The translations under genes were made by a program, and so were the position numbers. Source: Candidatus Brocadiia bacterium (GTDB lineage: Bacteria > Planctomycetota > PUPC01). Taken from it: DNA of 64,000 nucleotides. Of this stretch, positions 10,339 through 41,731 are shown in pieces (within the stretch, counting starts at the first letter, position 1; each line of letters starts with the position of its first letter). The notes below the pieces were generated by a model. The model was not told the DNA's origin, did no database searches, and worked only from the letters and a program-made list of their open reading frames with translations. The DNA lies in the NCBI GenBank assembly GCA_030605345.1, contig JAUWIN010000002.1, positions 1,672 through 65,671 on the forward strand, read 5' to 3'.

Positions 10339-11024
10339 TGTCCCGGCTGGTAATCGCCTCTGCCCTGTGGCTGGGAATCCTGACCTCCATCAGCCCATGC
10401 CCGCTGGCAACTAATATCGCCGCGGTCTCCTTCATCAGCCGAAGGGTCAGCAGCACGCGCCAAGTCCTCCTTTCAGGCCTGCTCTATACGGTGGGAAGAA
10501 CCGTTACCTACGTGACATTGGGCGTTGTCGTGATAGCCGGCCTGATGGCCAGTGGGGATATCGCCCGGTTCCTCCAGAAGTACCTCAATCAGGTCCTTGG
10601 CCCCGCGCTAATCCTGGTTGGCATGCTGCTGCTGGGGCTTCTCGGATTCACCGGCTCGCTTAGCCTGGCGGGTTCCGGTGTGCAGAAACGGGCCTCCCAG
10701 GGAGGCATCTGGTGGGCGGCCTTTTTGGGCATCCTGTTCCCCCTGTCTTTCTGCCCGGTTTCGGCGGGACTGTTTTTCGGGGGTTTGATCCCGCTGTCCG
10801 CGTCGAACAGATCGAGATTCCTGCTTCCAATGCTCTATGGGATAGGTACGGCACTGCCGGTCATTGTGTTTGCATTCCTGATGGCGTTCGCATCGCAGTA
10901 TGTAGGCCAGGCGTTCAACCGCCTGACCCAGATCGAACGTTGGATACGTGTGATTACCGGCGTCATTTTCATCCTCGTAGGTACCTACTACTGCCTGGCC
11001 CACATCTTCGTCGTGTTCTCGTAG
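10335..11024 (+). CDS. Cytochrome c biogenesis CcdA / DsbD transmembrane-domain family protein
   Basis: ISPCPLATNI first-Cys motif in TM1, 6-TM topology, ~229 aa. Confidence 0.65.
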   Translation: MMSRLVIASALWLGILTSISPCPLATNIAAVSFISRRVSSTRQVLLSGLLYTVGRTVTYVTLGVVVIAGLMASGDIARFLQKYLNQVLGPALILVGMLLLGLLGFTGSLSLAGSGVQKRASQGGIWWAAFLGILFPLSFCPVSAGLFFGGLIPLSASNRSRFLLPMLYGIGTALPVIVFAFLMAFASQYVGQAFNRLTQIERWIRVITGVIFILVGTYYCLAHIFVVFS

Positions 11025-11243
11025 TTCGTGACGGTTGCTTTCGGGGTGCGGTGCGGAAAGACCTGCAGCGCCTGTGGGAACTCATCCGTGGCGAGAAGGA
11101 TGCCTTTCTGAAATATGTGAAGGACGAGACCACGGGCTACCTGCACGCGGCAGGCAAATGACCGAGCTTCTACTTGTCGCAGCATCGCCGTTCTGGTTGG
11201 CAATTCGGTGATGCCTATGACAAGCTCGTTCCCTTCCAGAAGG

Positions 11244-12773
11244 TTATTCGTCAAGCATCTTTTTGGCTTTCCTCAGCTTCTCACTGAACGGGCCTTTTTT
11301 GAACGCTTTGCGCCACTTTCTCACGATGAAATAACCCATCGAGCCGAGCACGTCGTTGCGCCAGTGCCGGTACCAATTGCGCCAGCGGGTGCGGAGGTGC
11401 ACCAACGGCATCATGGCCAGCGGGAAGCGTAGAATCCGCAACACCAGCCCGGACATGCGGCTCAGACGGTAGAAACCGCCCATCAGCGACAGCATCGATT
11501 TCTGCATTTCCTCCGGCGTCAGCGGCGGGTCGGGCACAATGACCGGGAAGTTCCCGTCGTAATACTCCCAGCCGATCTCGCTGTTGGGCAGGACGCGGCC
11601 GGCCTTCTCGAGCCGATCGCGCAATGCGGTCCCGGGTATAGGCACGGGCAGGAGGGCCTGCACGGTGTCCAAGTGGGCTTCGCGGAAGAAGGCACGGAAG
11701 CGTTTGACCCGCTCGGCATTGCTCATGTGGAATTCCACACCGGGGCGCATGGGATATCCGAAGATGAACATACCATGGACAAGGAAGTCATGCCGGTGAT
11801 AGATCCTGGCCAGTTCCGCCATGTCGTCGGCCTTCAGCCGCTTGCCCATGGCGCGGAGTTCCTCGTCGATGGGCGACTCGATCCCGATGGCTACGCACTT
11901 GATGCGACACTCGCGCATAGCGGTCAACAATTCTTCATCGTGAGCGCAGTCCAACCTTATCTGCACGGTAAGGAAGAAACGCAGGCCCATGCTGCTCTGG
12001 TAGTCGCGGAGCATCCGGCAGAAACGCAGTGTCTCGTTGCGGTCCTGGCCGAATTGGTCATCGACTATAAAAAACTCCCGCGCGTGGTGGCTCTCGGCCA
12101 GGTAGCTTACCTGGGCCATCAGGCGTTCCGGTTTGGCGCAGCGTGCCCGGCCCTTCACCGCGCAAAATTCGCAGTTCATCCCGCAGCCGCGGATGCGGCT
12201 TATGGGAAAGAGCTTGAGCTTGGCGAACCGCAGCAGGCCGAAGTCGGGCAGTGGGAGCATATCGAAGTCCTCCAGCGGCGGGCGCGTCGCTGTGCGGAGC
12301 GGGGAACCGTTGTTCATGAATGTTATGCCCGGCACATCCTCCAGGGCGCCCCCCGAGTCCCGCGTATCCAGCAACTCCCGCACGGTTAGCTCGCCCTCGC
12401 CATTGACCACCACGTCCAGCCCGCTGCGCAGCGCATCCTCGGGCAGAGCGTCGAGGTGGTAGCCGCCGCCAATGGTGAAAACGCCGGCTTCCTTGTAGAA
12501 AGAGGCCACGGCGAACAGGCGGGGCACGGTGCAGGAAAGTCCCCCGTAGAACCCCACAACGTCAGCCGGGCGCATCTTCTGGAGTGCCTCGTGGTCCGGT
12601 ATGCCCTCCTCATCCACCGGCGCGGGGAAGCGGTAGTTATTTTCGTCGATGATTTCCACGTCCCAACCGGGCATCTTGCTCACGGAGGTGGCGACGCAGA
12701 TCGGCCCGAGTGCGGTGGTCTTCTTGGCTATGTGGCTGTACACGTTGAAGGCCGGATACTTGGGAATGACCAT
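11244..12773 (-). CDS. B12-binding domain radical SAM protein (class B radical SAM)
   Basis: CGMNCEFCAV CxxxCxxC motif, N-terminal Rossmann-like B12-binding region, ~510 aa; ORF-track start at 12887 (TTG) adds a low-complexity 38-aa extension, so start taken at MVIPKYPAFN. Confidence 0.65.
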   Translation of the reverse strand: MVIPKYPAFNVYSHIAKKTTALGPICVATSVSKMPGWDVEIIDENNYRFPAPVDEEGIPDHEALQKMRPADVVGFYGGLSCTVPRLFAVASFYKEAGVFTIGGGYHLDALPEDALRSGLDVVVNGEGELTVRELLDTRDSGGALEDVPGITFMNNGSPLRTATRPPLEDFDMLPLPDFGLLRFAKLKLFPISRIRGCGMNCEFCAVKGRARCAKPERLMAQVSYLAESHHAREFFIVDDQFGQDRNETLRFCRMLRDYQSSMGLRFFLTVQIRLDCAHDEELLTAMRECRIKCVAIGIESPIDEELRAMGKRLKADDMAELARIYHRHDFLVHGMFIFGYPMRPGVEFHMSNAERVKRFRAFFREAHLDTVQALLPVPIPGTALRDRLEKAGRVLPNSEIGWEYYDGNFPVIVPDPPLTPEEMQKSMLSLMGGFYRLSRMSGLVLRILRFPLAMMPLVHLRTRWRNWYRHWRNDVLGSMGYFIVRKWRKAFKKGPFSEKLRKAKKMLDE

Positions 12774-13634
12774 GCGGAAAATGCGCCGCCTGCTGGCCTC
12801 AGTGATACCGGCCTCAGAATTGCGCCGGCCTTCTCTGGACCCGGATTGAGTTTCATTCATCATCTTGCCTTCCATATCTGAACACAACCGGTAGTTATCA
12901 GCCCTCGCCTTGGTCCTTCATCGTTTCGACTGCCTCCCATCTTATCGCTTCAGCGTCTCAAGTGCAATTCCGCAGAAAGTTGCTTCCGGAACTGCGATGT
13001 GAACGGTGCTGTTGGCCCAAGGCGCACTGCTCGGGAAGGCGCAAGGAAGACCACGCCGAGCTGTTCGACACGACTGGCGAGGCATCCGCAATTCTTGGCG
13101 GCACGTTCTGGGTCCCGCGCAGCAGGTGAACCCTGGGGTTGCCACCTACAACATCTGCAGTCGAGCCGAATTTGTCGCATCACTTCATTCGGAACGGAGC
13201 TGTTAGGCACAGGCACCGGCTGTGTCATCTCAGACCTCGCGGCGTCCTGTAGCGGCGTGATTGGCGCCTTTCCCCTCTGAGCTACGTCATCAGCCGAGCC
13301 GCGTTGAGCTGGCTCAGCGTGATGATTTCCTTCGGGTGGGTGGCCCTCCCACGCTTCCTTTTTATCAGCCATGCCTTTGTCCCAGAGAAAAGGGGCCTTA
13401 CCGGTTGCTACCCCGGACGAGGGCCTGCGACGGCCGGACGCGAGGGTTCACTGGCAGGCGCCTCATGGAAGGAGCATGCCGGGCTATTGCCCCCGTGCCC
13501 TCCGTACGGTCGGACTCTTCGGCAGCGACCAACGCCCAGTCAGGCGAAACTCGGTTGTCGGATACTATGACAGTCTCCCCTTCACATAATGGCAACAAGC
13601 AGTCTTTCTCAGAACTACTGGGCGGCTTGGGGTT

Positions 13635-13663
13635 TTGACACATGTCTCTTTCGCGCGTATCAT
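13635..13663 (+). promoter_or_regulatory. sigma70-like promoter TTGACA-17-TATCAT ~145 nt upstream of TIR gene
   Basis: Read directly: ttgacacatgtctctttcgcgcgtatcat. Confidence 0.4.
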
Positions 13664-13806
13664 GCCCGACAGTTGCATTGCACAACACGTGCATAGAGGA
13701 GAAGAATATCGGCCAAGGGGACAGATGGTCAGTACCAAGACAAGCAGACGCTTCAAAGTGGGCCCCTTATTCCCTGGTGAGCGCCCCCAATTAGAGGGCA
13801 CAAATC

Positions 13807-14745
13807 TTGTCTGACTGTGTACCAAGCGCCGTGACTCAGAAGTGGGATGTCTTCATTTCCCACGCGTCTGAAGACAAGGAGAGCTTTGTACGCCCCTTGG
13901 CTATCGCGCTGCGAAGACTCGACGTTTCGGTGTGGTATGACGAGTTCTCATTGCGGGTGGGCGACAGCATTTCCGGCGCCATCGACAAGGGGCTTGCGGA
14001 GTCCGCGTACGGTCTTGTTGTGATCAGCCGAGCGTTCATTGAGAAGCCTTGGCCCAAGCGCGAACTCCGTGGTCTTGTCACGAGGGAAGTTGGAGGCCGC
14101 AAGGTCATCTTGCCAATATGGCATGGCCTCACGCACAGGGAAGTCATGAAGTTCAGCCCGCCGCTCGCCGACGCGCTGGCAATCGACACTGCCAAGGTAA
14201 GCCCTCAAGATGCAGCAATTCAGATCCTGCAAGTTGTTCGGCCAGACCTCTATAATGGGCACCCACGCTCTCAGCTTGAGAAGTTGGCTACTGGTGAAGC
14301 CATCACAGACCTACAGCGAGAGGTCGAACGAGCCCGCGCAGAACAAGAAGCCTTGCGTGAAGAGCTATCTGAATATCAATGCCCCTACTGTGAAGCGCCG
14401 CTAGCTATCAGGGTCGATGCGCCAGTTGACGAGGAACAGAAGCACTGGGACATGCGCGAGGCCTACGAGTGCGGCTACCAGTGTTTTGGCGGCTCCATGG
14501 AGAGGCCGTGCCCAGCCGACCCGAAGTCCCCGAAGTTCGAAGATTACGAGTTGCGGTTCACCGAGGACCCCGAGGAGCCGAAGTGGTGCTGCCACGCAGT
14601 GCCCAAAACGTATATGGCCCGACTTTTGTGGCTATCATCGGGTTACGGCGCCACAAGGAAGGAAGCGGAACGCTCTGTGCGGGATCAATACAACGCATGT
14701 GCCCGAAGAGCGCGCAAGCAGCCGGGCAACGGTGGAACGCAATAA
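13807..14745 (+). CDS. TIR-domain protein with C-terminal coiled-coil and Cys-rich (zinc-ribbon-like) extension; ThsB-like
   Basis: WDVFISHASEDKESFVRPLAIALRRLDVSVWYDE ... SRAFIEKPWPKRELRGL: canonical bacterial TIR motifs including conserved Glu; TTG start with AGAGGG RBS; C-terminal CPYCEAP...YECGYQCFGG...CPADP...WCCH. Confidence 0.8.
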   Translation: MSDCVPSAVTQKWDVFISHASEDKESFVRPLAIALRRLDVSVWYDEFSLRVGDSISGAIDKGLAESAYGLVVISRAFIEKPWPKRELRGLVTREVGGRKVILPIWHGLTHREVMKFSPPLADALAIDTAKVSPQDAAIQILQVVRPDLYNGHPRSQLEKLATGEAITDLQREVERARAEQEALREELSEYQCPYCEAPLAIRVDAPVDEEQKHWDMREAYECGYQCFGGSMERPCPADPKSPKFEDYELRFTEDPEEPKWCCHAVPKTYMARLLWLSSGYGATRKEAERSVRDQYNACARRARKQPGNGGTQ

Positions 14746-14781
14746 TCTGACGACGGGACCGCAGGTCAGGAGAGAAACGGC

Positions 14782-15948
14782 ATGGTTGCGAGCAAAGCGG
14801 AAAGAGACCTGGTGCTATTCCTCGGTGCAGGCTTTTCGCGCGATGCTGGCCTACCTATCATGAGCGAGTTCGGAGCGAGTTCGAGAAGAGCCTACAGGCG
14901 CTGCAGAATGAAGCAGGACAGACGCGAAATGGGGCCTATTTACGTCAAAGCTGGCGCGGTATTCAGAAAGTTTCAGCAGTTCTGCAGCCGTGGGGGTTCC
15001 GTGCTGAGCATCGACCACGACAATATGGAGGTCGTCTTCTGTGTGGCAGAGGCCCTGCGCCAAACGTTGGGTTCATCAGCGAAGATCCTGCGGTCATACG
15101 GCAGGGATTACACTGCCGCTGAGGTGTATGAACAGATCCAAGTGTGGCTGTGGAAGATGTACCAAGTTAATCCCTTGCCCAGGGATTGGCGGCAGAGCCG
15201 CTACACAACATTCGTGAAAGCGCTGAAGAACGCGAAAGCACCAGAGAAAGTTGCGGTTATAACTACCAACTACGACCTGGTCTTCGAATCATTCGCTTGG
15301 AGAGTGGGGCTGCCGTGCGAGTATGCTGTAGCCAATTCTCGGCGCATATCTGGAGGAGGACGCACTGAATCGTATTTGGCCAGCGGGCCCGGACCCCGCC
15401 CTTTGCTCGTGTGCAAGCTTCACGGCAGCATCAATTATTTCACCGATTCAGGAGAAGACGAACAGCTCTTCATCTGCGACGACGTCCTCAAGAGCGGCGA
15501 CTACGTCACCGAGGATGGTAGAGTCAGGCATGGAGGCACAGAGCGGCCTTGGGTTCTCTCCTTTGACGCGGTAACCCGGCTGCGCAGGAAATACAAGGGG
15601 GATTTCGTGCCCGCCCTCATTCCCCCTACCTACGGTAAGCTGGAGCAATTCGATTGGCTGAGACGCATCTGGAGAAGTGCATTTGATGCACTCAGGTCTG
15701 CCAAGAAGCTTGTATTCATTGGATATAGCATGGCTGAGAGCGATGGTCATTTGCGCGCCATGATACAATCGGCCATGTCCAAGCGCACGCTGGCTAGTCC
15801 GCCCGAGGTCTACGTTTTTGACCCGTCACCTGAAGCGCTGGTGCGGTATCGTCAGTTCTTTGCTCCTCTGAAGTTAGCCTCGGCCCAACACCTCTGGGGT
15901 ATGGATTTCGCAACCACCTGCGACACAAAGCTTCCGGACGTGCTGTAG
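14782..15948 (+). CDS. SIR2-like (SIR2_2 family) NAD-dependent effector-type protein, no SLOG domain
   Basis: LFLGAGFS...GLP N-terminal motif, ITTNYD, CKLHGS (His), VFIGYSMAESD motifs all match SIR2_2/ThsA-N-terminal family; AGGAGAG RBS; 36 bp downstream of TIR gene. Confidence 0.75.
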   Translation: MVASKAERDLVLFLGAGFSRDAGLPIMSEFGASSRRAYRRCRMKQDRREMGPIYVKAGAVFRKFQQFCSRGGSVLSIDHDNMEVVFCVAEALRQTLGSSAKILRSYGRDYTAAEVYEQIQVWLWKMYQVNPLPRDWRQSRYTTFVKALKNAKAPEKVAVITTNYDLVFESFAWRVGLPCEYAVANSRRISGGGRTESYLASGPGPRPLLVCKLHGSINYFTDSGEDEQLFICDDVLKSGDYVTEDGRVRHGGTERPWVLSFDAVTRLRRKYKGDFVPALIPPTYGKLEQFDWLRRIWRSAFDALRSAKKLVFIGYSMAESDGHLRAMIQSAMSKRTLASPPEVYVFDPSPEALVRYRQFFAPLKLASAQHLWGMDFATTCDTKLPDVL

Positions 15949-16235
15949 GGTCGAAATCTTGCGCTGCCGCGAGCGATGTTATTATGGGCAGTGGGACGGG
16001 CGCAGAGCTGCCAAATTCGTCGTTGCTCGCGCCAGTCGGACATGGCCGCGATGTGGCGCAGCTCTTTTTCGGTGACGGGGTCGTGACCGTTGAGGCTCTT
16101 GGGAAGGAAGAGCATGTCTTCCTGGATGTCGGGGGCTAGGAGAAGCAGGTTCATGATTTGCGTTAGTCGTGCGCGGGAGACGTGGCTGAGGCGCGCGAGG
16201 TCGGCGTACTCGCGGCCTTTGCCACACCACCCCAT
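15949..16235 (-). other. Possible remnant ORF carrying a ParB-type helix-turn-helix (LARLSHVSRARLTQIMNLLLLAPDIQEDMLFLP)
   Basis: HTH pattern resembles ParB/Spo0J SRSHVANLLRLLKLP..VQ; ORF is short, lacks the rest of a ParB nuclease domain and overlaps the SIR2 3' end, so likely a degraded mobile/plasmid gene. Confidence 0.2.
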
Positions 16236-16446
16236 TCCAACCAGGGTTGTTAACCGGAACGCTCTCGCCGGGTGAGAGTCCGAGAGCCTTCGGCTTTTCG
16301 GCCAGACGTGGCGGGATTCCGGTTAACTGAAAGAGAGAATCGCGGCGCGCCATACAGTAGAAGTCGTTCTGGCGACTTCACTGTATGTTGACGCCATCAG
16401 GTGAAGCAAGTGGCGCGAGCTTCTACTTTGGGAAGGGGAGAGGCGG

Positions 16447-16713
16447 TCAATCGGGCTGGCCTGATGCGTTGAAGAACTCCCGCAGCATGAGCTTCAGAGC
16501 TCTCTTGCCCGCGGTCTTCTTGAAGTATTTCTCGCGACGTTCCGCATCTTTGCGATTGCTAAATGCCTCGTAGAAGATCAGCCTGACGGGCCTTCGGCCC
16601 TTCGTGGACGCGACCTGCCCTTTCCTGTGACGCTCCACCCGTTTCTTCAAATCGGAGGTGTAGCCGGTGTAGAGCTTCCCATCGCCACAAAGAAGCACAT
16701 AGACATAATACAC
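16447..16713 (-). CDS. GIY-YIG nuclease family small protein
   Basis: MYYVYVLLCGDGKLYTGYTSDLKKRVERHRKG...: GIY-YIG catalytic motif and conserved Arg/His, 88 aa. Confidence 0.7.
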   Translation of the reverse strand: MYYVYVLLCGDGKLYTGYTSDLKKRVERHRKGQVASTKGRRPVRLIFYEAFSNRKDAERREKYFKKTAGKRALKLMLREFFNASGQPD

Positions 16714-16831
16714 AGGGAAGGCACCAGCCGGTTTTGGAGGATACGCAGGCCCCCCTGTAGTGGAAACTCGCTACGCTCGGTTCACTGCAGGGCATCGCCA
16801 TACAGTGAAGCCGCCCGCGGCATCTACTGTA

Positions 16832-16918
16832 TGGCTCCTCGGGTAGGACTCGAACCTACAGCCTAGCGGTTAATCCGCCTCCGGCGGACCGCTCTACCAA
16901 TTAAGCTATCGAGGAAAC
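16832..16918 (-). tRNA. tRNA gene, class II (long variable arm); anticodon tentatively GGA (Ser) with encoded CCA
   Basis: Minus-strand cloverleaf readable: U8, D-loop A14/G18G19/A21, anticodon stem GTCCG/CGGAT, T-arm GTAGG-TTCGAGT-CCTAC, 7-bp acceptor with one mismatch, G73, CCA; anticodon loop CCGGAGG is atypical (C33). Confidence 0.6.
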
Positions 16919-17052
16919 TGGCACACCATGGAATATACGGAACGCGGCGGGTTGTGTCAGCCTCGCGCGCGGTCCGACATCGTGGACGGTGCCGCTTGAA
17001 CCGTCCGGTTCGTCGGCGGTATAATCTTCACACCGAAGAAGGACTTGCAGGG

Positions 17053-17532
17053 ATGATGCAGAAACTCCAAACGTTGATCTGCTATGCCATCGTTCTGGTG
17101 GTGCTTGTTGTTCTCTATTATATTGCCACGAGTTTCGCCGTGGCGATTGTGGACGAAAAGTTCACCCGCATGGAGCCGACGCTCGAATCAGGGGGCACGT
17201 ATTTCCTCGACCGGCGCAGTTCGACAGTAACGTCACTGAGCCGGGATGATTTGATTGCTTACAAAATAATGCATAAGCAAAAAACCAAGCGTATGTTCGG
17301 CCGGGTGCTTGCGCTGCCGGGAGCAACGGTGCGGGTCAGTGACAAAAAACTCCTGGTGAACGGCGATGAAACGGCGAACGCTCCCCGCAGCATCAGCACG
17401 CTGAAGACGGGACTGCTTGTGCCCAGGGATACGGTACTGGTCGGTTTCGACTCACAAAAACGCGGCAGAATCTCCCTGTCGCAGCGGCTCGTGCCTTATC
17501 GCAGTATCATCGGGCGGGTGATAGGCAAATGA
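17053..17532 (+). CDS. lepB: Signal peptidase I (S26 family)
   Basis: TM anchor then FTRMEPTL (catalytic Ser box) and later boxes; start moved to MMQKL, ORF-track N-terminal 33 aa are Arg-rich non-conserved. Confidence 0.65.
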   Translation: MMQKLQTLICYAIVLVVLVVLYYIATSFAVAIVDEKFTRMEPTLESGGTYFLDRRSSTVTSLSRDDLIAYKIMHKQKTKRMFGRVLALPGATVRVSDKKLLVNGDETANAPRSISTLKTGLLVPRDTVLVGFDSQKRGRISLSQRLVPYRSIIGRVIGK

Positions 17533-19289
17533 CAACTGAGCAGTACCGGGGGCTCGTTATCGGCCAGATTGCCGCGGCGTGTGCGCTCGGCGCGGCGGTG
17601 GCGGTAATCCTTGTCTGCGCCGTGCCGCAGTGCCGCAGCAGATATCACCTGGCAAAGGCCACCGAACATTACCTTGTGGGGATGGAGGCGGGCCTCCGTC
17701 AGGCGGTGGAGGAGTTGGACCGGGCGCTGGCCAACGAGCCCGGACTGCCGGCGGCGCTGGGACTGCGCGGCCGGATTGCGCTCCAACAGGGCGACGCCGC
17801 CACCGCTCGCGACACATACAAGGACCTGGAGCGGGCACTTCTGGAAGAAGGGCTGTCCGACGTCCCGGCACTGAACGGGATCGGATGCACCCTCCTGCTC
17901 GAAGCCACGCGACACGGGGCGAACGACCGCAAACGAATAGAAGAAGCCTACGCAGAGTTCGCATCCGCCGTCAACAGGGACGGGACAAACGGAGACCCCC
18001 ACGTGCACGCGGCGATATGCAGCCTGTACATGGGAGACGTGGTCAAGGCTGCTTCGCACCTGGCGAGCGCACGCGAGACTAGGGACCTAAGCTACGAATC
18101 GGCGGTCACATATTACGCTGCCGTCGCCTCAATGCTTGCGTTGGCCTCAGGCAAAGGGGACAAGACCGCATCCGCAGTAGCCAATGAGTTCGGCGATCCA
18201 GCCCCCAGACTGCGGAAAACCGGCCAGATGCTGTTCCGCGCGGCCGACGAGCTCGACAAGGCGATTGAATTGGCACGGGACGCGAAGACCGCGGCCAGGC
18301 TCCGGGCCAGTGCCGCACTGCTGAAGGCGAAACTGCTTGCCTGGGCGCCACTTGAGAGCGCGCGTGCCATCCGATACCGACAGGTTGTCTACCAGGCCTT
18401 GTCAGAGCAAGAAGCTCTCTTCACCTCATCGCAACGCCAACTTTTGCGTCTGGTGTTGGGGGTATCCCACCACAGGTTCGGAGAAATTGACCACGCCCTG
18501 CGGTGGGTACGCCGGGCGGCGACAACGGGTAAGCTCAGCCCTGAAACAAACTTTTATGTCGGAGCGGCCATGTTGGCGCTGGCGGAGTCGAAGAACGGAC
18601 CGGCCAACCGCGCAGAGCTTGAGAGTGAAGCCGCGAAGCACCTCCGGGCAGCGCTGGCGAAGCCCGGCCTGCCCGGCCGGATGAGATTCCGCTCGCTGAG
18701 CGACCTCGCCACAGCCCGGTGGCACGCAAACGATCCTTCCGGCGCCCTCGAGCAGATGGACGAGGCGGGAAAGATACTGGCCAAACTCGAGGGGCATCCG
18801 GGAGCGCCAGCCGGGGAAGAAAGGAGCACGTATTACCGGAACCTGGGAATCATGCTGTATAAGACCGGAAGGCCGGATGCTGCGGCGGGACCCCTCAGAA
18901 AAACGCTCGAAATCGACAACAACCAGAACGCTGTCCGACACCTCCTGGCCAGGATAACGCACGAGCCGGTAATCAGAGACATCAAGATAATCGTGACAAA
19001 GCAGCATCCGCCCAGCATGCCGATTATTATGGTCGAGGTGAGCAGCGGGGGTGCTGTGCCTTTACGGAAGCAGGAGATTTCGGTCAAAATCGACGGTGAG
19101 CGTGTCGCATTTATCGTCGGCCCGAACAACCGGATATATGCCCTGCCCCGGAACGCACTGGCGGAAGGAAGACACACCGCAACCCCACCCATCGCCACAG
19201 CGGGCGGGCAAAAGGCGCAGAGACAGGAAAAGTTCCGTGTCAGTTATGGCAGGTTTCGCCCAGCAGCGGCCGAAGGCGGAGGTCACTAA
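17529..19289 (+). CDS. Membrane-anchored TPR-repeat protein
   Basis: N-terminal TM helix, repeated A/L-rich helical TPR-like units across ~580 aa. Confidence 0.45.
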   Translation: MTTEQYRGLVIGQIAAACALGAAVAVILVCAVPQCRSRYHLAKATEHYLVGMEAGLRQAVEELDRALANEPGLPAALGLRGRIALQQGDAATARDTYKDLERALLEEGLSDVPALNGIGCTLLLEATRHGANDRKRIEEAYAEFASAVNRDGTNGDPHVHAAICSLYMGDVVKAASHLASARETRDLSYESAVTYYAAVASMLALASGKGDKTASAVANEFGDPAPRLRKTGQMLFRAADELDKAIELARDAKTAARLRASAALLKAKLLAWAPLESARAIRYRQVVYQALSEQEALFTSSQRQLLRLVLGVSHHRFGEIDHALRWVRRAATTGKLSPETNFYVGAAMLALAESKNGPANRAELESEAAKHLRAALAKPGLPGRMRFRSLSDLATARWHANDPSGALEQMDEAGKILAKLEGHPGAPAGEERSTYYRNLGIMLYKTGRPDAAAGPLRKTLEIDNNQNAVRHLLARITHEPVIRDIKIIVTKQHPPSMPIIMVEVSSGGAVPLRKQEISVKIDGERVAFIVGPNNRIYALPRNALAEGRHTATPPIATAGGQKAQRQEKFRVSYGRFRPAAAEGGGH

Positions 19290-19292
19290 GCT

Positions 19293-19865
19293 ATGTTGTG
19301 CCCGAAGTGTAACACCGAGAACAAGATGGGCTCGATCTACTGCGCCGGCTGCGGGGCGAAGCTCGAGATCACCGAGGAGCAAGCGCACACCGAAGCCGCC
19401 GAGGATCTACGCCACAGCAAGTGGCAGAAAGCATACCTGGCGTTGAACCGGGTGCTGTTCCTGTCCCTGCTGGTATTCATTGCCTCGCTCTTGTTCCGCG
19501 GATATGCCACGCGAAAGGTCCTCGCGGATTTCAGCGCCAGTGCGCCGCTCCCGCCGGCGCCTACGCTGGCACTTACCGGCTCGTTCATCAAGCAGCCCAG
19601 ACTCCGCGTCCCGCAGACGCGCCAGCCGGGCGTGCTGCGGCCTGAGAAGGGCAGTGAGGACGAGATTCTCGCCGACCTCGCACAGACCGCGCGCCGCCGC
19701 CTTGACTGTACCGTATCCCTGAAGACCGGAGAGGCGGTCAAAGGCTGGCTGCTCTTCCGCACGAAGGACGAGTTACGCGTCATAACACGCTGGGCGCCGG
19801 TGCCCGCAGTTCGCGTCATCAAGGCTGGCAATATTGATTTTGGGCAAAGCCAGCTGCCCGAATAA
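19293..19865 (+). CDS. Zinc-ribbon domain membrane protein
   Basis: MLCPKCNTENKMGSIYCAGCGAKL zinc ribbon, followed by a TM helix. Confidence 0.45.
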   Translation: MLCPKCNTENKMGSIYCAGCGAKLEITEEQAHTEAAEDLRHSKWQKAYLALNRVLFLSLLVFIASLLFRGYATRKVLADFSASAPLPPAPTLALTGSFIKQPRLRVPQTRQPGVLRPEKGSEDEILADLAQTARRRLDCTVSLKTGEAVKGWLLFRTKDELRVITRWAPVPAVRVIKAGNIDFGQSQLPE

Positions 19866-20201: not shown

Positions 20202-20987
20202 ATGAAGGTCGCTATTACAGGCAAGGGCGGGGTCGGCAAGACCACTATCACAGCGCTTGCTGCTCGTCGGCTGGCGGAGCAGGGCCGCAAGGTATTGGCA
20301 GTGGATGCCGACCCGGACACCAATCTGGCGGCGGCTCTCGACTTCCCATCCCCAGAGGAAATTGTGCCCATCGTAGAGATGAAGCAGATGATCGCCGAAC
20401 GTATGGGCACTCGGCCGGGTTCTGTGGGGACGTACTTTAAACTCAATCCGAACGTAGATGACCTGCCGGCGAAGCATTGCATAGAGCATCAGGGCGTCAG
20501 GCTTATCGTGATGGGGATGGTAAAAAGAGGCGGAGCGGGGTGCGCCTGCCCTGAAAACGCCTTCCTCAAGGTCCTGCTTAGCCACGTCCTTCTCCGCCAG
20601 AATGAGGACGTGCTGGTGGACATGGAAGCCGGACTGGAGCATCTCGGTCGGGCCACTGCTTCTGCGGTGGACGGGCTTCTGGTCGTGGTCGAGCCCGGGC
20701 TGCGCAGCCTTGAGACGCTCGAGCGCATCCGCACGCTTGCCTCTGATATTGGTTTGAAGCGGTGTTGGGCCGTCGCAAACAAGGTCACATCTGACGACGA
20801 GCGAGCTTTCCTGTCAGACCACGCGCCGGACGGTGGCTTCGTTGGCTCGCTCCCGTCCAGCAAGAACGTCGTGAGCGCAAGCCGGGGACAAGGCTCGTTG
20901 AGGGACGTAGAGCCCGAAGTATGGCAGGAGATTGATTCGGTCCTGCAAGCAATAAACAGCAATCAAGCAGTCGAAAGGACAGGTTGA
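20202..20987 (+). CDS. cooC: CO dehydrogenase maturation ATPase CooC (Ni-insertion, MinD/ParA fold)
   Basis: MKVAITGKGGVGKTT deviant Walker A, ~261 aa, immediately upstream (ATGA overlap) of cooS. Confidence 0.8.
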   Translation: MKVAITGKGGVGKTTITALAARRLAEQGRKVLAVDADPDTNLAAALDFPSPEEIVPIVEMKQMIAERMGTRPGSVGTYFKLNPNVDDLPAKHCIEHQGVRLIVMGMVKRGGAGCACPENAFLKVLLSHVLLRQNEDVLVDMEAGLEHLGRATASAVDGLLVVVEPGLRSLETLERIRTLASDIGLKRCWAVANKVTSDDERAFLSDHAPDGGFVGSLPSSKNVVSASRGQGSLRDVEPEVWQEIDSVLQAINSNQAVERTG

Positions 20988-22920
20988 TGAGCAAGGGAAA
21001 AAGTGCTTCACGCTCGATAGACCCGGCGTCTCAGGAAATGCTGGAAAGGGCAGAGGCAGCGGACATCTCGACGGCCTGGGACCGGTTGGAAGAGATGGAG
21101 CCGCAGTGCGGATTCGGACGGCTGGGCATTTGCTGCCGCAACTGCTCGATGGGGCCATGCCGCATCGACCCGTTCGGCGAAGGCCCGCAGGCCGGTGTAT
21201 GCGGCGCGAACGCCGACACCATCGCCGCAAGGAACCTGCTTCGCATGGTGGCTGGCGGCGCCGCAGCCCATTCCGACCACGGCCGCGACATCGCTCACAC
21301 GCTCAAAATGGTGGTAGACGCCAAGGCCGCCGACTACACCATCAAGGACGGACAGAAGCTCCGGCAAGTGGCCGCGAGATACGGCGTCGAGACCGGGGAA
21401 AAGGACGACAAAGCGATTGCCGCTGAACTTTCCGAGGTTGTGCTCGCCGAATTTGGGAAGCAGGAAGGTTCCCTCACCAGTGCGTCCGCTTACGCTCCGC
21501 CAGCCAGGGTGGAGCTGTGGGAGCGCCTCGGCATCATGCCGCGTTCTATCGACCGTGAGATCGTCGAATCGATGCACCGCACACACATTGGGGTGGACTG
21601 CGACTACAGAAATCTGGTAAAGCACGCCCTGCGCCTGAGCCTTTCCGATGGCTGGGGCGGGTCGCTCGTCGCTACGGAGCTCTCCGACATCCTGTTCCAG
21701 GGCCCCGAACCCATTCGCTTCGGCGCCAACCTGGGGGCGCTGGAAGAAGACAAGGTAAACGTGGTGGTGCACGGGCACGAACCTACGCTCTCCGACATCA
21801 TCGTTGCCGTCTCCGGCGAAGAGGAACTCCAGAAACTGGCCGAGGAAAAGGGGGCGAAAGGAATAAATATCGTGGGGATGTGCTGTACAGGGAACGAAAT
21901 ACTAATGCGCCATGGCATCCCGGTCGCCGGCAATTTCCTTCAGCAGGAACTGGCGGTGATACCGGCAGCGTCGAACTGATGGTGGTTGACGTCCAGTGCA
22001 TAATGCCCGCCCTCAGCTCCCTGTGCAATTGCTTTCACACCAAACTCATCCCCACCTCGCCCAAGTGCAAGATGGAAGGCGTCGAGCACGTCGAGTTCCA
22101 CGAAGAGGCGGCGATGGAAATCGCGCGAAAAATCATCAAAACCGCGGTCGAGAACTTCCCCAACCGCGGCAGCGACGTACACATACCTGACCACAAAGAG
22201 CAGGCCATCGGCGGATTCACCACCGAAAACATCTTTCACATACTCGGTGGGTTCTACAGGAGCACATATCGGCCCCTCAACAACGCAATAATAGAAGGGC
22301 GCGTGCGCGGCGCCGCCGGGGTCGTCGGGTGCAACAACCCGAAAGGCCGGCACGATTACGGCCATATCACCATGATGAAGGAACTTATCAAGAACGATGT
22401 TCTGGTGGTCGCGACAGGATGCGGTGCCATCGCCGCGGCAAAGGAAGGCCTGATGCGGCCCGAGGCGGCGGACCTTTGCGGAAAGGGCCTGGCTGAGGTC
22501 TGTAGGGCGGTCGGGATACCGCCCGTGCTCCACGTTGGCTCGTGTGTGGACAACAGCCGAATCCTGACAATCCTCGCAAACGTGGTCGCTGAGGGCGGCC
22601 TGGGCGAGGACATATCCGACTTGCCGGTGGCCGGGGCGGCGCCGGAGTGGATGTCCGAGAAGGCCGTCTCCATCGGGATGTATTTCGTCGCTTCCGGCGT
22701 CTATACCGTGCTCTGCCAGCCGCTGCCGGTGCTGGGCAGCGAGAAGTTGACGCGACTGCTCACGGAAGAACTCGAGGACCAGGTCGGCGGCATGTGGGGA
22801 TGGGACCCGGACCCAGTCAAGGCGGCGCACTTGATGATTGATCACATCAACAAGAAGCGCAAGGCACTGAAATTGCGGCCGATGATGTACCAGACAGCGC
22901 CGGTGGGCGCCAGCGGATAA
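20984..22920 (+). CDS. cooS: Anaerobic Ni-CO dehydrogenase catalytic subunit CooS/AcsA; interrupted by an apparent -1 frameshift near 21960-21975
   Basis: N-terminal CGFGRLGICCRNCSMGPCRIDPFGEG (B/D-cluster cysteines) in frame 2 (20984..21979); C-terminal half MVVDVQCIMP...HVGSCVDNSRIL in frame 1 (from ~21964); expected ...ELAVITGSVELMVVD is split as ELAVIP / GDTGSVELMVVD, consistent with a missing A in gtgata(a)ccggc. Confidence 0.8.
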
Positions 22921-22942: not shown

Positions 22943-23437
22943 ATGCGAAAAATCATGGTGGACCTCCAACTGTGCATGGGCTGCAACAGTTGCGAGATTG
23001 CCTGCGCAGTTCAGCACTCGCAAAGCGGTGATCTCTTCGAAGCGTTGAAAGAGCCTGTCCTGCCCGGATACCGCCTGCGAGTGAGGGCAAGCTACGGGAT
23101 GCCGTTCCCGCTGCGCTGCGAGCAGTGCGAGGACGCACCCTGCATCGATGCCTGCAAGAGTGGTGCAATGGCCCGCGACCCGGAGACCGCCTCGGTGCAG
23201 ATCGATGAAGACAAATGTGTGGGGGGCTGGATGTGCGTGATGGTCTGTCCATTTGGAGCGGTTTTCCCTGATATGGAAAGGGGCAAGGCGGTCAAGTGCG
23301 ACCTTTGCCGCGGGCACGAACGGCCCGCCTGCGTGGACGCCTGTCCCACCAAAGCCCTGAGCTACGTCGAGCCGGACGAGTTCGCCGCCCGGTACATGCG
23401 CGCCGAAGCCGCAAAGACCTCAACGGAGGCTGAGTGA
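22943..23437 (+). CDS. cooF: CooF-like 4Fe-4S ferredoxin-type electron transfer protein
   Basis: CMGCNSCEIAC, CEQCEDAPCIDAC, CVGGWMCVMVCP, CDLC...CVDACP cluster motifs; follows cooS. Confidence 0.75.
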   Translation: MRKIMVDLQLCMGCNSCEIACAVQHSQSGDLFEALKEPVLPGYRLRVRASYGMPFPLRCEQCEDAPCIDACKSGAMARDPETASVQIDEDKCVGGWMCVMVCPFGAVFPDMERGKAVKCDLCRGHERPACVDACPTKALSYVEPDEFAARYMRAEAAKTSTEAE

Positions 23438-37748: not shown

Positions 37749-39620
37749 TCAATCTCCCGGGGACCCTAGTACCTGGCAGGTTAGATCGAGCGATTCGTCG
37801 GGCGACCCTGCCTGTCGCCGACCGTCGGTCCGCGACGGTTCAAAGCTCACGTTCGTGAAAAACGGGGAGTTCTCTATCGAGGCTATGAGCTGGCGCTTGA
37901 GGCGAACGGCACTGGCGGTGGGCACTGAGTAGATCTCCACGTTGAGCCGCATCTTACGGGGGCCGTCGGCTTTGACAAACGAGAGCGACCTGAGGTAGGT
38001 GCCTTCGGGCATGATGTTACTGAGTTCGTTGAGTATAGCCGCGTGGATGGGGTTCCCGGCGCCGAGAGACCTGAGAATCCCCCTCCGCCTGGCCAGCTCT
38101 CGCTGGTATTTCTGTGCCGCAGCAATTTTGTCTGCCGCCCGTTCCATCGGTGTGGCGGTCTGCCGCTTCAGGAGCAGGACATGCTCGAGCTCTGAGTTCT
38201 CCTTCTTGGCGGTGAGGGAAAGGGCGATCAATGTGAAAATGCTGGCGGCGGTCGCCACCAGCGAGGCGGTGCGTATCGCCAGGACGATTCGCCTGGACTT
38301 GATCCGCGCCGGCAGGAGATTGACCTTTGAACTGTTGTGTATTGCGGCGCCGGTGGCAACGGCGAACAGGGCCGGGTCCGATTTGATACCGGGAGCGACC
38401 TCGAACCCCAGCATCCGCCAGGGGTCGAGCGGGGCGGTAGGGATTCGCATTTGGCCGGTGAGATACTCCGCCAGTCCGCCCAGCGTGGCGCTCCCCCCGC
38501 AGATGAAGAGGCTTTCGACCCTGGCGAGGCCGTGACTCTGGGCGCAAAATTGAAGTGACCGGACGACCTCCGAAGCCATCCGTTCGAGAACCGGCCGGAT
38601 GGCGCCCAGAATCCTGTTGGCCGGCAGGGTTATCCCGCTGACTTCAACCGAGCCGGTCTGGCCGATGGTATATCTCCTCTTGACCTCGTCGGCTGCCCGA
38701 CGGCTGACCTCCACGGTGTCGTTACCGAAAGATATTTTCCCCGACAGGGCCGCGGTAACAGTGTCGCCGCCCACGGGTATCTGGCGGGTGAACTCCAGGC
38801 CGTGCTCGCCGACGACTGAGAGGTTTGACGACGCGGTGCCGATGTCGAGCACGGCGACTGGCCCCCGCTCCTGGGCGTGATAGGCGGCCATCACAATGTT
38901 TTCGGCCGCGATGGGCCCGGAGACCACAACCGAAAGCCTCGGCCGGTCCGCGGGGAACAGGACATCCATCCTGCCGATGTCCTGGGGCACTGCGGCGACA
39001 ACCACGTCCACGCTATCCGACTTCCTCTCTGCATTCAGGACGTAATGCCCGACGGCCGCACGTTCTACATCGACCGAGCCAGCGTCGGCTACCTTCCACC
39101 GCACGGCCCGTGCGAGGTCTTTTTCGCTCATTTTCGGCATCGAACAACAGACCGTTGCCACTCCGTCGCCAGACATGGCGCAGCAGGCGGCTCGGGGGCG
39201 CGGCTTTGCTCCGGCCACAAATTTTTTGACAGATTTAGAAACCACCTCGAAGCGGTCAGGGTCGGACTTGGGCGGCAGTTCTGTGACCTCGGCGCCTACC
39301 AGTCGGATTCCGCTGCCGCTCGTCTGGAGATGGACAAGTTTCAGCGTCCGCTCCCCCACGTCCACCCCAATGACAGACCGGCCGCCGTGGATGGACGCAT
39401 TGCTCAACTCGCTGTGTGGCTCATTTACCTCCGTGGCGCCGGGTGAACGCTGGCCGTCGAGACGAAGAGCGGGCTCTGCGCCTCCGGCGGACGGGTCCGC
39501 CGTCTCGCGGACCGCGGCGTTTTCTTTAACCGTACGGAGCATGGCTTCGGGAGTCTGCTGTTGCTTGGCCCCGTTCAGGATGTGAGTTTTGTTCTCGGTT
39601 TCGTCGCTCAAACTGGTCAC
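37749..39620 (-). CDS. pilM: PilM-PilN fusion protein (actin-like ATPase PilM fused to PilN TM/periplasmic domain), N-terminal ~100-aa extension
   Basis: Central ASKHA/actin-like PilM region (IGVDVGERTLKLVHL...), then TM segment IKSRRIVLAIRTASLVATAASIFTLIAL and PilN-like C-terminus. Confidence 0.65.
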   Translation of the reverse strand: MTSLSDETENKTHILNGAKQQQTPEAMLRTVKENAAVRETADPSAGGAEPALRLDGQRSPGATEVNEPHSELSNASIHGGRSVIGVDVGERTLKLVHLQTSGSGIRLVGAEVTELPPKSDPDRFEVVSKSVKKFVAGAKPRPRAACCAMSGDGVATVCCSMPKMSEKDLARAVRWKVADAGSVDVERAAVGHYVLNAERKSDSVDVVVAAVPQDIGRMDVLFPADRPRLSVVVSGPIAAENIVMAAYHAQERGPVAVLDIGTASSNLSVVGEHGLEFTRQIPVGGDTVTAALSGKISFGNDTVEVSRRAADEVKRRYTIGQTGSVEVSGITLPANRILGAIRPVLERMASEVVRSLQFCAQSHGLARVESLFICGGSATLGGLAEYLTGQMRIPTAPLDPWRMLGFEVAPGIKSDPALFAVATGAAIHNSSKVNLLPARIKSRRIVLAIRTASLVATAASIFTLIALSLTAKKENSELEHVLLLKRQTATPMERAADKIAAAQKYQRELARRRGILRSLGAGNPIHAAILNELSNIMPEGTYLRSLSFVKADGPRKMRLNVEIYSVPTASAVRLKRQLIASIENSPFFTNVSFEPSRTDGRRQAGSPDESLDLTCQVLGSPGD

Positions 39621-39856
39621 CTGGTTTCGGCCGGATGGGCTGCGGTCGGGCTATGAGAACCGATGAACAATGTGTCCCTGGCGGCCCGAACCAGCTGCCA
39701 TTCCAGCACTGGGCGCATGCATGTCTCGTCCTCCGGGTGAAGTATCGGCACCGGCGAATGGGGTATTAGTCTTTTTTGGGCTTAGGCGGACGACGGCCGA
39801 TACGCTAATTTGGTGCGAGGCCGGGGCTTACGTGCCTGAGCTGGGCTGGTTCTGTG

Positions 39857-41644
39857 TCATCTGGCTTCTATGGGCTCCAAGGCTCTGTTGATGCGCCGTT
39901 TGAGGCCCTCGGACGGCGAGCAGTTCTCCAGACAGAACCTCAATTGCCGCCGCGCCTCCTGCAATTTCCCGGCCTCTCGGCACGCCTCCGCAAGCCAGCC
40001 GCGCCAGCGCGCCGAATACTTCTCAAGGGCGCAAGCCCGACGCAGGCGGTCCAGTCCGATATTATCTTCCCCGCAATTGGGCGCCCGTTCCGTGCTTTTA
40101 TGCAGCAGCCAGCCGAGGTAAGCATGGTATTTCGCCGTGCGGGGGCTGAGGCGAACCGCCCGGCGATAGGACCCAGCCGCCGCTTCCGGGGCCAGGGCCT
40201 CTTGCATCCGGCCGAGGTAGCACCAGTAATTGGCCGATAATGGACAGATTTTGACGGCCAGTGGCGCATTGAAGAGAGTCGTTTGGAGGAGCCGCTGAGC
40301 GGCGAGCGGCCTGCCGGCAAAAACCGCCGCTGCCGTGCCCGCTGCGAGAACGACAGTTGAGAAAAAACGCCGCAGGCCCGCGGCACCGGGCGCCAAGACC
40401 ACCCGGCCGGCCCCCGCCAGCCGGGAGTGTGCCGCGGCGATAATTGCCAGGCAAAGGAAAATCAGAAGCGCAGTCGCCGGAACATACAAATTAAAATCAA
40501 CCAGGCTATGCAGCAACGCAGCGCCAGCCCCGGCACAACACCCCGCCACCAACGCGCCGTCGGCGGTGTCGCCTGCTTCACCAAGCACCTGGCGCGCCAT
40601 TCGACCAACTCTCCATAGCAACCACGACAGCGCCAGAAGACCCAGAGGCCCCAGTTCCACCAGAATCTGAAGGTAATCGTTGTGAGCAAACCACTGCCGC
40701 GTTCCCGCCAGCGACGCATGCTGGTGCGCCGCATAATCGATGTGGTAGGTGTCCAAGCCGATCCCGAGCGGCCAGCCCTCCGCCGCCATCTCTAAACCGC
40801 TGCCCCAGTACCAGGTCCTTTCCACGAACGTCGCAGCCGTATAAGGTTGCGCCACGGAGGCCAGGCGCTCACGAAGTCCCTCCGATAAGCTGACCACGGC
40901 AACCACCGCGGCCAGCCCGACGGCAGCGGCCGGCCAAACCTTCAGCCTGAGCAGCTTCAACCGCCTGAGCTGCCAGGCCAGAAACCGCATCCCCGCCGCA
41001 CCCGCCAGCCAGCCACCGCGCGACTGTGAAAGAATAAGTGCCTCGAAAAGGAAAACCGCCGAGAGCCACAGCGCTACGCGGTATAGCCCCCTGCCAGCTG
41101 TCGCGGCAAGGGACACGGTCAGCGGAATGGCTATAATCAGGAACCCTGCAAAGGTGTTGGGCGTGACAAAGACCGAGTGCGCCCGCGCTCCCACGGCAGT
41201 AGGGAACAGGCCGCTTCGGGTTGACGCCTGCCACAGCCCCAGCCCGCTCAGCGCACACGCCAGGATAACTACCGCCGTGCACAGAATGCGCGCCTGCCGG
41301 GCGCTGCGAAACTCATGCAGGACGAGCAGAAAGACCACCGTGCACGCGAAAATGCGCGCCACACCGGTCAGCGAAACGAAGCGGTCGATGGACCAAAGCA
41401 CAGACGCGGCGGCGACGGCGAGAAATAAAATCAGCGGCAACACCGCCGGCGAACGCACGGCGACCGTCGGGGACGACGGGTCAAGGAGCCGCCGCAGAAG
41501 TACCGTACCCAGGATGACGGCGGTTACCGTGACTGCGGTCAGGGGGAGAAGGTCGCGTCCGGCGCCCTCGTCGAACGGCGCCATGAACAGAACAAACAAC
41601 AGGCCAACGAACAACAGACGGGCGCGATAATTGCTGGCGGACAT
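39857..41644 (-). CDS. O-antigen ligase-like (Wzy_C) polytopic membrane protein with C-terminal TPR region; candidate pilin O-oligosaccharyltransferase
   Basis: ~12 predicted TM helices with a large periplasmic loop typical of Wzy_C/PglL/TfpO proteins, followed by TPR-like helical repeats; directly downstream of the pilin gene. Confidence 0.55.
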   Translation of the reverse strand: MSASNYRARLLFVGLLFVLFMAPFDEGAGRDLLPLTAVTVTAVILGTVLLRRLLDPSSPTVAVRSPAVLPLILFLAVAAASVLWSIDRFVSLTGVARIFACTVVFLLVLHEFRSARQARILCTAVVILACALSGLGLWQASTRSGLFPTAVGARAHSVFVTPNTFAGFLIIAIPLTVSLAATAGRGLYRVALWLSAVFLFEALILSQSRGGWLAGAAGMRFLAWQLRRLKLLRLKVWPAAAVGLAAVVAVVSLSEGLRERLASVAQPYTAATFVERTWYWGSGLEMAAEGWPLGIGLDTYHIDYAAHQHASLAGTRQWFAHNDYLQILVELGPLGLLALSWLLWRVGRMARQVLGEAGDTADGALVAGCCAGAGAALLHSLVDFNLYVPATALLIFLCLAIIAAAHSRLAGAGRVVLAPGAAGLRRFFSTVVLAAGTAAAVFAGRPLAAQRLLQTTLFNAPLAVKICPLSANYWCYLGRMQEALAPEAAAGSYRRAVRLSPRTAKYHAYLGWLLHKSTERAPNCGEDNIGLDRLRRACALEKYSARWRGWLAEACREAGKLQEARRQLRFCLENCSPSEGLKRRINRALEPIEAR

Positions 41645-41731
41645 TTATTCTCTGCCAGCCGCAATGAAAAACGGAGAAGCCCGGCGGAAAAGAGCCTCGG
41701 GGGTGCGCCGGACTGTGTGCGACGGGAGCGA

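Follow-up and report, generated by a model that had tools for sequence, protein, structure and literature searches.

The 64,000-nucleotide stretch of contig JAUWIN010000002.1 (assembly GCA_030605345.1, positions 1,672 to 65,671) from a Candidatus Brocadiia bacterium, an uncultured member of the Planctomycetota, referred to below as the window, carries an island of accessory genes between a radical SAM/B12 gene and an operon for an S26 signal peptidase. The island holds a TIR-domain gene, a SIR2-domain gene, the remnant of a helix-turn-helix (HTH) gene whose intact relatives belong to the integration module of a large serine recombinase (LSR), a short GIY-YIG gene between inverted repeats and a degenerate gene of the tRNA-Asn(GTT) type. 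Positions within the window are as follows.

11244-12887, minus strand: radical SAM/B12 gene, flanking the island on the low-coordinate side.
12888-13806 (919 bp): non-coding spacer between the radical SAM and TIR genes.
13635-13663, plus strand: sigma-70-like promoter TTGACA-17-TATCAT (11/12), placed 144 nt before the start codon of TIR; a pattern match only, from a consensus scan.
13807-14745, plus strand: TIR-domain gene, 312 amino acids (Pfam TIR_2, 4.7e-19).
14782-15948, plus strand: SIR2-domain gene, 388 amino acids (Pfam SIR2_2, 5.3e-12), starting 36 nt past the TIR gene.
15958-15973, plus strand: terminator-like hairpin, which follows the stop codon of SIR2 at a distance of 10 nt; a pattern match only, from a consensus scan.
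15990-16215, minus strand (mechanical open reading frame, ORF, 15852-16235): HTH-gene remnant, the C-terminal ~60% (phrog_14161, 7.4e-12).
16223-16341, minus strand: left-terminal non-coding segment of the element (nhmmer E 6.9e-8 to locus L256).
16349-16427: left arm of the inverted repeat around the GIY-YIG gene.
16447-16713, minus strand: GIY-YIG gene, 88 amino acids (Pfam GIY-YIG, 4e-17).
16759-16835: right arm of this repeat, with an outer hairpin that begins at the final 4 nt (GCCA) of the tRNA.
16832-16915, minus strand: degenerate tRNA-Asn(GTT)-type gene (ARAGORN call tRNA-Ser(GGA); Rfam tRNA, 43 bits).
16932-16960, minus strand: sigma-70-like promoter CTGACA-17-TATATT, with 17 nt between its end and the tRNA-like gene downstream; a pattern match only, from a consensus scan.
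From 17053: S26 signal-peptidase operon, flanking the island on the high-coordinate side.

An initial annotation had listed most of these genes between the radical SAM gene and a tRNA gene, and each feature that it named was found in its place. This includes the fragmentary HTH ORF, whose read-through tail overlaps the 3' end of the SIR2 gene by 97 nt, and the stand-alone GIY-YIG gene, which lies 118 nt from the tRNA-like gene. The ORF-poor stretch, estimated at about 750 bp, is also present, but measures 919 bp. It has no codon periodicity, with a codon-phase GC difference of at most 0.10 compared to 0.32-0.44 in the radical SAM gene, its ORFs have no Pfam match, no Rfam family was found in it at E<=1, and blastn and tblastn showed no similarity to any of the loci that we fetched, a total of 2.8 Mb. 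The distal (left) boundary of the island is somewhere within this spacer. The radical SAM protein is homologous to its relatives only from about residue 22-36 of the mechanical ORF onward, and the true start codon is therefore probably located downstream of the TTG at 12887, which would make the spacer somewhat longer than 919 bp.

The HTH remnant has no match in Pfam or NCBIfam, and the label 'ParB-type' that it had been given is unsupported; its match is instead to phrog_14161, described as 'recombinase'. Its homologues are 3369 unannotated proteins of about 140 amino acids, many from Planctomycetota and Phycisphaerae, and the family is characterized by the motif YADLARL...TQIMNLL...LAPDIQE. 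The fragment is 58-72% identical to these proteins, with the similarity restricted to the C-terminal ~60% and the N-terminal part absent, and tblastn of intact HTH copies onto the window covered 16262-15978.

We read the contexts of this HTH family in 11 chromosomal or metagenomic loci (L083-L093) and in 80 viral loci from IMG/VR (L188-L267). In the contexts read, the HTH gene comes directly after a DUF2924 gene and an LSR gene of ~516 amino acids with Resolvase, Recombinase and Zn_ribbon_recom domains. The HTH gene usually overlaps the LSR stop codon in intact loci, and variable genes come next, among them genes of the defence or toxin-antitoxin kind (DUF6088 with AbiEii), prophage regulators (a LexA-like S24 repressor and an ImmA/IrrE (M78) peptidase) and many unknown proteins. 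An LSR was present in 76/80 of the IMG/VR loci and DUF2924 in 63/80; the LSR misses and most of the DUF2924 misses occur in contigs that break off shortly before the HTH gene, and a few loci with ample upstream flank still have no DUF2924 match. The related viral contigs span from ~5 to >80 kb, and by their gene content the carriers look like temperate phages or integrative elements. As the family of the HTH fragment is tied to LSR modules, the integrase of the island would have been a serine recombinase.

A tRNA-Asn(GTT) gene is found on the same strand upstream of DUF2924 in 18/80 of the IMG/VR loci, typically 650-750 nt away. The order in these intact tRNA-Asn-linked loci is tRNA, small gene, DUF2924, LSR, HTH and cargo. 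Read on its minus strand, the window matches both this order and this orientation, with the tRNA first, the HTH gene further on and SIR2 and TIR behind it. The genes in between are missing, as tblastn with the proteins of two intact elements (E<=5) detected neither the small gene nor DUF2924 nor the LSR anywhere in the window. What is preserved is a remnant of a DUF2924-LSR-HTH element, not a functional member of the family.

A second part of the element was recognized upstream of the HTH stump. The segment 16341->16223 (minus strand) aligns to 7310-7429 of L256, a non-coding region located 350-460 nt upstream of the DUF2924 gene of that locus, and the local alignment score of 65 is to be compared with 18.6 +/- 2.3 for shuffles. 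The segment also matches L263 (nhmmer E 6.5e-4) and, more weakly, L222 and L218, and in L218 the match lies 120-250 nt past the tRNA-Asn gene. Two of the four GTTAAC sites in the window are within this segment, arranged as an 11-nt inverted repeat, TTCCGGTTAAC. The 2.8 Mb of loci contain 10 copies of a related motif, GGTTAACAAC, 6 of which lie at most 420 nt upstream of DUF2924. A left-end match upstream of the HTH stump, together with the missing module, points to a deletion with its junction near 16222-16212. Such a deletion would have taken out the small gene, DUF2924, the LSR and the HTH N-terminus, thereby joining the left-terminal segment of the element to approximately codon 60 of the HTH gene, and with the recombination module removed the remnant would be unable to excise. 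The candidate of a full-length HTH gene with a frameshift and an internal deletion was dropped, since the same DNA aligns to the non-coding left end of L256.

The tRNA-like gene was aligned with 17 tRNA-Asn genes of the viral loci, which gave 84-88% identity and scores of 85-97, compared to ~23 for tRNA-Ser(GGA) and tRNA-Leu; the gene descends from tRNA-Asn. In the window copy, GTCCGCCGGAGGCGGA stands in place of AGCGGCTG, the segment for the 5' side of the anticodon stem and the initial bases of the loop. This is a net insertion of 8 nt and it destroys the GUU anticodon. In the fold chosen by both ARAGORN and Rfam the anticodon loop is CCGGAGG, with C33 and without U33. A genuine tRNA-Ser(GGA) would have U33 and a purine at 37 in this loop, a long structured variable arm and an acceptor/D-arm of the Ser type. 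The identity as tRNA-Ser(GGA) was excluded by the low score and by this non-canonical loop, and judging from the altered anticodon arm the gene is a degenerate tRNA-Asn derivative that is probably non-functional. An identical tRNA-like sequence is present in the ENA contig L001. The tRNA gene said to bound the island is thus there, with its 3' end facing the island, but it is not a normal tRNA. The promoter-like site at 16932-16960 could drive the tRNA-like and GIY-YIG genes jointly. ARAGORN also calls an 85-nt tRNA-Ile(GAT) at 23233-23317(+), and the Rfam tRNA model reaches its gathering score in the window only at 16835-16915; the tRNA-Ile call is probably false or very aberrant.

Tyrosine-type integrases leave a duplicated tRNA 3' end; serine recombinases exchange strands at a 2-bp core without duplicating the tRNA end. 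The initial annotation had suggested looking near 12.9-13.6 kb for a repeat of the tRNA 3' end as an attachment (att) site. Our searches with the tRNA and its flanks (repeat search, blastn-short and k-mer matching) gave 9 nt as the longest direct match within 11000-16789, and no partial tRNA was found by Rfam at E<=1. The missing repeat fits a serine recombinase, given the 2-bp core exchange. In 12/16 tRNA-Asn-linked loci (L189-L266) a GTT(T/A)AC motif is located 33-37 nt past the discriminator base of tRNA-Asn, beyond a host-specific hairpin, and this motif is likely the att core of this serine-recombinase family. A second conserved motif, ATCCCG..CAAAGG.TT.CGGCG, was observed ~85-110 nt downstream in the tRNA-Asn-linked loci, and the two motifs are candidate att or binding sites of the recombinase family. 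GTGAAC after the tRNA hairpin of the window was tried as att core and rejected, as its offset is 49 instead of 33-37 and it matches in only 5/6 positions. A different arrangement is seen in L089 (8516-8591) and also in L090 and L091, where a 38-nt tandem duplication adjoins the 3' end of tRNA-Asn(GTT). Each copy opens with the last bases of the tRNA, and the duplication as a whole is followed by GTTAAC and the terminal hairpin of the element. The elements in these three loci are oriented opposite to the tRNA, with the cargo end proximal, and this would fit a palindromic crossover core that permits both orientations.

Between the tRNA 3' end and the left-terminal segment lies the GIY-YIG cassette (16349-16835), a unit of 487 bp in which the 88-amino-acid gene is located between imperfect inverted repeats of 79 and 77 nt (alignment score 60, compared to 17 +/- 2.2 for shuffles). 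Each repeat folds into a hairpin over its outer 38 nt, with z-scores of -4.8 for the left arm and -3.6 to -4.0 for the right arm, and the hairpin has the form CCATACAGT...ACTGTATGG. The inner stems of the two hairpins (16350-16387 and 16797-16835) are GTCG/CGAC and GCCG/CGGC, respectively; these compensatory differences suggest selection on the structure rather than a mere recent duplication. The right repeat opens with the terminal GCCA of the tRNA and the left repeat ends 8 nt from the left-terminal segment. The cassette consequently fills the exact junction between tRNA and element, where intact loci carry just a short hairpin, and an insertion is the simplest reading of this arrangement. 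The GIY-YIG gene, which the initial annotation had counted as part of the element, is therefore probably a separate and later insertion. An identical GIY-YIG protein in the same arrangement was found on contig L001.

Among the closest known proteins are the small stand-alone GIY-YIG proteins, the YhbQ/UPF0213-like class. The window protein shares the catalytic domain (4e-17) with them and differs by the 79-nt inverted repeats that flank the window copy. The same domain is shared with the GIY-YIG homing endonucleases, but the window protein of 88 amino acids is without a DNA-binding domain and without an intron or intein context, and the group I intron endonuclease model scored 16 bits against it, with a cutoff of 56 bits.

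On the other side of the HTH stump, and convergent to it, are the TIR and SIR2 genes, framed by the promoter-like site at 13635-13663 and the terminator-like hairpin at 15958-15973. The TIR protein consists of an N-terminal TIR domain of the NADase type, a coiled coil and a Cys-rich C-terminal domain with the invariant pattern CPxC...CG...CP, and its AlphaFold model has a predicted local distance difference test (pLDDT) score of 88.8. Full-length homologues of 285-310 amino acids with 40-55% identity form a recurrent family. PADLOC models matched the protein (PDC-S66, 3e-60; ThsB, 1e-34), with the match confined to the TIR domain. This domain shares 45-55% identity with those of PdTIR, AbTir and BtpA, with root-mean-square deviations of mostly 1.4-3 A, and its conserved Glu, as read from the sequence, is within KRELRG. 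In AbTir, PdTIR and BtpA/TcpB the TIR domain is C-terminal; in the window protein it is N-terminal and followed by the coiled coil and the four-Cys domain. The Agrobacterium plasmid pAt2 encodes a full-length homologue of 50% identity whose neighbours are DUF6088, an AAA ATPase and an S8 peptidase; SIR2 is not among them, and a copy on a Rhizobium plasmid is likewise without a SIR2 neighbour. Members of such identity on conjugative plasmids of Agrobacterium indicate that the TIR family moves horizontally.

The SIR2 protein belongs to a family of 329 proteins of ~390 amino acids in which the motifs GAGFS, TNYD and KLHGS are invariant columns. SIR2_2 is the only domain that Pfam detected in it, and its model (pLDDT 88.9, predicted template modelling score 0.89) shows a single, confidently predicted unit in which no further domain stands apart. 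Among solved structures, the SIR2 protein of SIR2-HerA has the nearest fold (Foldseek E 1e-8, template modelling score 0.45-0.55). The window protein is of similar size to this protein of the SIR2-HerA (Nezha) system but only 14% identical to it, and there is no HerA gene in the island or in the neighbour clusters examined. Genes of the family are found next to Mur ligases, GroEL, restriction-modification methylases and DUF5131. The closest homologue (56% identity; L102-L107) is translationally coupled, by overlapping stop and start codons, to a DUF5131 (phage Gp37/Gp68-like) gene and an unknown gene of 126 amino acids, and the other members of the SIR2 family are without both. A single-protein search of JGI metagenomes with SIR2 gave no match.

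The initial annotation regarded TIR and SIR2 as a defence module. The two genes do adjoin, and the catalytic motifs of both are intact, but a module has not been demonstrated, since a TIR neighbour was found in 0/86 loci of SIR2-family genes, with none in the 80 loci that an alignment-based scan retrieved. As in type I Thoeris a TIR gene stands beside a SIR2 gene, with catalytic motifs in both, and the TIR matches the PADLOC ThsB model. Type I Thoeris, however, requires the SIR2-SLOG effector ThsA (bioRxiv 10.64898/2025.12.03.692087), and a SIR2 without SLOG, here also without any other sensor domain, means that the pair is not Thoeris. The window TIR is furthermore of the AbTir/PdTIR clade with a different C-terminal domain, and the two families were not found together elsewhere, so type I Thoeris was rejected. 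Most likely, TIR and SIR2 would provide two independent single-gene anti-phage functions (NADases of the abortive-infection type) that were kept by the host.

The GC content of the island is 57.5%, compared to 60.3% for the whole window and 59-61% for the flanks (which had been put at 62-65%), and this places the island in the lowest 5.5% of 4-kb windows. GC at third codon positions is 0.65 in TIR and 0.64 in SIR2, compared to 0.70-0.86 in most genes of the window. The two genes are thus AT-richer than their surroundings, as the initial annotation had suggested by eye, but the shift is modest. A check by sliding-window composition had also been suggested; tetranucleotide usage deviates more strongly at 13.5-17 kb (z -2.2 to -2.9) than anywhere else in the window, and in atypical synonymous codon use SIR2 ranks first and TIR fourth among 43 genes. 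Codon use of the GIY-YIG gene is host-like (z -0.25). As a control for this signal we used the region 39500-43000, whose products are a Wzy_C protein resembling O-antigen ligases, a pilin that carries an N-methylation motif and a T2SS-F protein. This region is the second outlier of the window in tetranucleotide and codon use, the gene at 39857-41644 having a codon-use z of -2.0, and its deviation is probably a composition effect of membrane proteins.

In a GTDB scan with the radical SAM protein, 80 loci were retrieved, the best at 76% identity in metagenome-assembled genomes of Planctomycetota, and there were no common neighbours on either side. An exact-protein search gave no match for the radical SAM, SIR2 and TPR proteins. 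For GIY-YIG and S26 it returned only contig L001 (1.6 kb), which is 99.7% identical over 1.65 kb and therefore represents the same population. The operon at 17053-19865 encodes the S26 peptidase (159 amino acids), a TPR protein (~585) and a zinc-ribbon protein (~190), kept at 47-61% identity in L094-L101. Only 10 S26 homologues were found in 5.8 billion proteins, which indicates a narrow lineage-specific family. The gene upstream of this operon varies per lineage (aminoacyl-tRNA synthetase, ExbB or short-chain dehydrogenase), with no tRNA upstream of it in the related lineages. These varying neighbours would count in favour of an inserted element at this position; they identify the site as a recurrent synteny break and are not proof that the island is an insertion. 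Further downstream, the carbon monoxide dehydrogenase/prismane gene that follows cooC (20984-22920, plus strand) is split into two overlapping ORFs, of which 20984-21979 corresponds to Pfam Prismane 1-271 and 21880-22920 to Prismane 271-512. This is a mid-gene frameshift, reflecting a pseudogene, a sequencing error or another cause.

Taken together, we find it probable that the region from ~13.6 to 16.34 kb is what remains of an integrative element (a temperate phage being the likeliest kind) that carried the small gene-DUF2924-LSR-HTH module downstream of tRNA-Asn(GTT) and whose recombinase module was deleted. The element would have been located immediately downstream of the tRNA-Asn(GTT) gene, and after the deletion the genes for the two NAD-consuming enzymes, TIR and SIR2, would have remained beyond the HTH stump. 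The 487-bp cassette would have arrived later, between the tRNA 3' end and the left end of the element. With intact DUF2924-LSR-HTH modules the window shares the C-terminal part of the HTH protein (58-67% identical), the left-terminal segment and the order and orientation of tRNA-Asn, module and cargo; it differs in that the small gene, DUF2924, the LSR and the HTH N-terminus are deleted and that only ~3 kb of presumed cargo is retained. Compared to other prophage or island remnants adjacent to tRNA genes, the likeness is in the position on the 3' side of a tRNA-type gene, the accessory and defence-type genes, the mildly deviant composition and the decayed mobility genes. The LSR with its DUF2924 and HTH partners, the lack of a duplicated tRNA 3' end and the damaged tRNA set the window apart from these. 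An integrated element beside a tRNA that has lost its integrase, as the initial annotation proposed, is thus supported by the HTH stump and the left-terminal segment of an LSR element from which the LSR is absent. Its picture of a tRNA-targeted element holds in that the island adjoins a tRNA-Asn derivative and the integrase is gone, but the recombinase was of the serine type and did not leave a duplicated tRNA 3' end.

Several observations weigh against this interpretation. The left-terminal similarity consists of one strong match and weaker ones, no distal att site or right-end repeat was found, which leaves the left boundary undefined, and most members of the element family are not located beside tRNA-Asn. 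The nearest relatives (76% protein identity for radical SAM, 61% for S26) share no synteny, so that no insertion or deletion is visible. The compositional shift of the island is real but modest, as the conserved S26 peptidase gene ranks 3rd of 43 in codon atypicality and the membrane-protein region at 39.5-43 kb deviates to a similar degree in its tetranucleotides. Finally, TIR and SIR2 were not seen as cargo in ~90 intact elements, and their arrival as cargo is therefore our inference.

This last point leads to an alternative that carries considerable weight and that we still consider the less probable course of events, namely that the remnant of the LSR element is real and that TIR and SIR2 reached the same hotspot independently of it, one by one or as a pair, as in defence islands that accumulate at integration sites. 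In its favour, apart from the missing families in intact elements, SIR2 relatives are absent from IMG/VR, where a single-protein query also gave no close TIR relative, each family occurs alone in unrelated contexts, and TIR and SIR2 run convergently to the HTH stump with a promoter-like site of their own. However, TIR and SIR2 are directly beside the stump, where intact elements hold variable cargo including AbiE, and no second set of mobile-element scars was seen around them. The spread of the TIR family on plasmids and the varied contexts of SIR2, including those beside restriction-modification methylases, count for the main reading of an integrative element. That the island is no island, and consists of long-resident chromosomal genes beside an incidental HTH fragment and an odd tRNA, is very unlikely. 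Its GC is inside the overall range of the window, the core gene S26 is equally atypical in codon use, that of GIY-YIG is host-like, and the same arrangement is found in a second assembly; but this assembly is 99.7% identical and hence of the same population, the HTH stump and left-terminal segment derive specifically from a mobile element, it is in the island that tetranucleotide usage reaches its minimum for the window, and the TIR family is present on plasmids of another phylum. Hardly any credence is left for a classical tyrosine-integrase island with a direct repeat of the tRNA 3' end and an integrase deleted later. The tRNA-like gene does face the island with its 3' end and the island is mildly AT-richer than its surroundings, but this reading is largely refuted by the lack of a tRNA 3' repeat longer than 9 nt or a partial tRNA, and by the sole remnant of an integration module, which belongs to that of a serine recombinase.

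The GIY-YIG cassette could itself have been the active agent, a small mobile unit encoding a nuclease that inserted into the hairpin downstream of the tRNA, at the att region of the element, with cleavage and repair leading to the loss of the recombinase module and to the damaged tRNA. The position exactly between the tRNA 3' end and the left end of the element, the 79-nt inverted repeats with conserved hairpins and the intact catalytic domain are in line with such a role. We nevertheless regard it as unlikely, as the junction of the deletion (~16222-16212) lies ~130 nt from the cassette and not at its edge, and as the window holds a single copy, with no further one in the 2.8 Mb of loci apart from contig L001/L082 of the same population. 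In addition, three distant homologues of the GIY-YIG protein, from Omnitrophota, have no flanking inverted repeats and no nearby tRNA, and no relatives were found in IMG/VR. A related proposal, and in our view a quite doubtful one, is that the 487-bp unit is an undescribed minimal mobile cassette that targets the hairpin/att region after tRNA genes, whose insertion may have inactivated the resident serine-recombinase element. Less likely than this mobile cassette is a new two-gene Thoeris-like system composed of TIR and the SLOG-less SIR2.

As an island, the locus is routine, a decayed mobile element that would have left defence-type genes behind. It illustrates that a gene which annotators would name tRNA-Ser(GGA) is a broken tRNA-Asn, and that TIR-type and SIR2-type NADase genes can be neighbours and still not constitute Thoeris, which makes the adjacency of domains by itself a risky basis for calling a system. 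It also links an unannotated HTH family of ~140 amino acids, with more than 3000 members, and DUF2924 to the integration modules of LSRs. The GTT(A/T)AC motif at a fixed offset by tRNA-Asn may in turn serve as a lead for the att sites of recombinases from poorly studied phyla.

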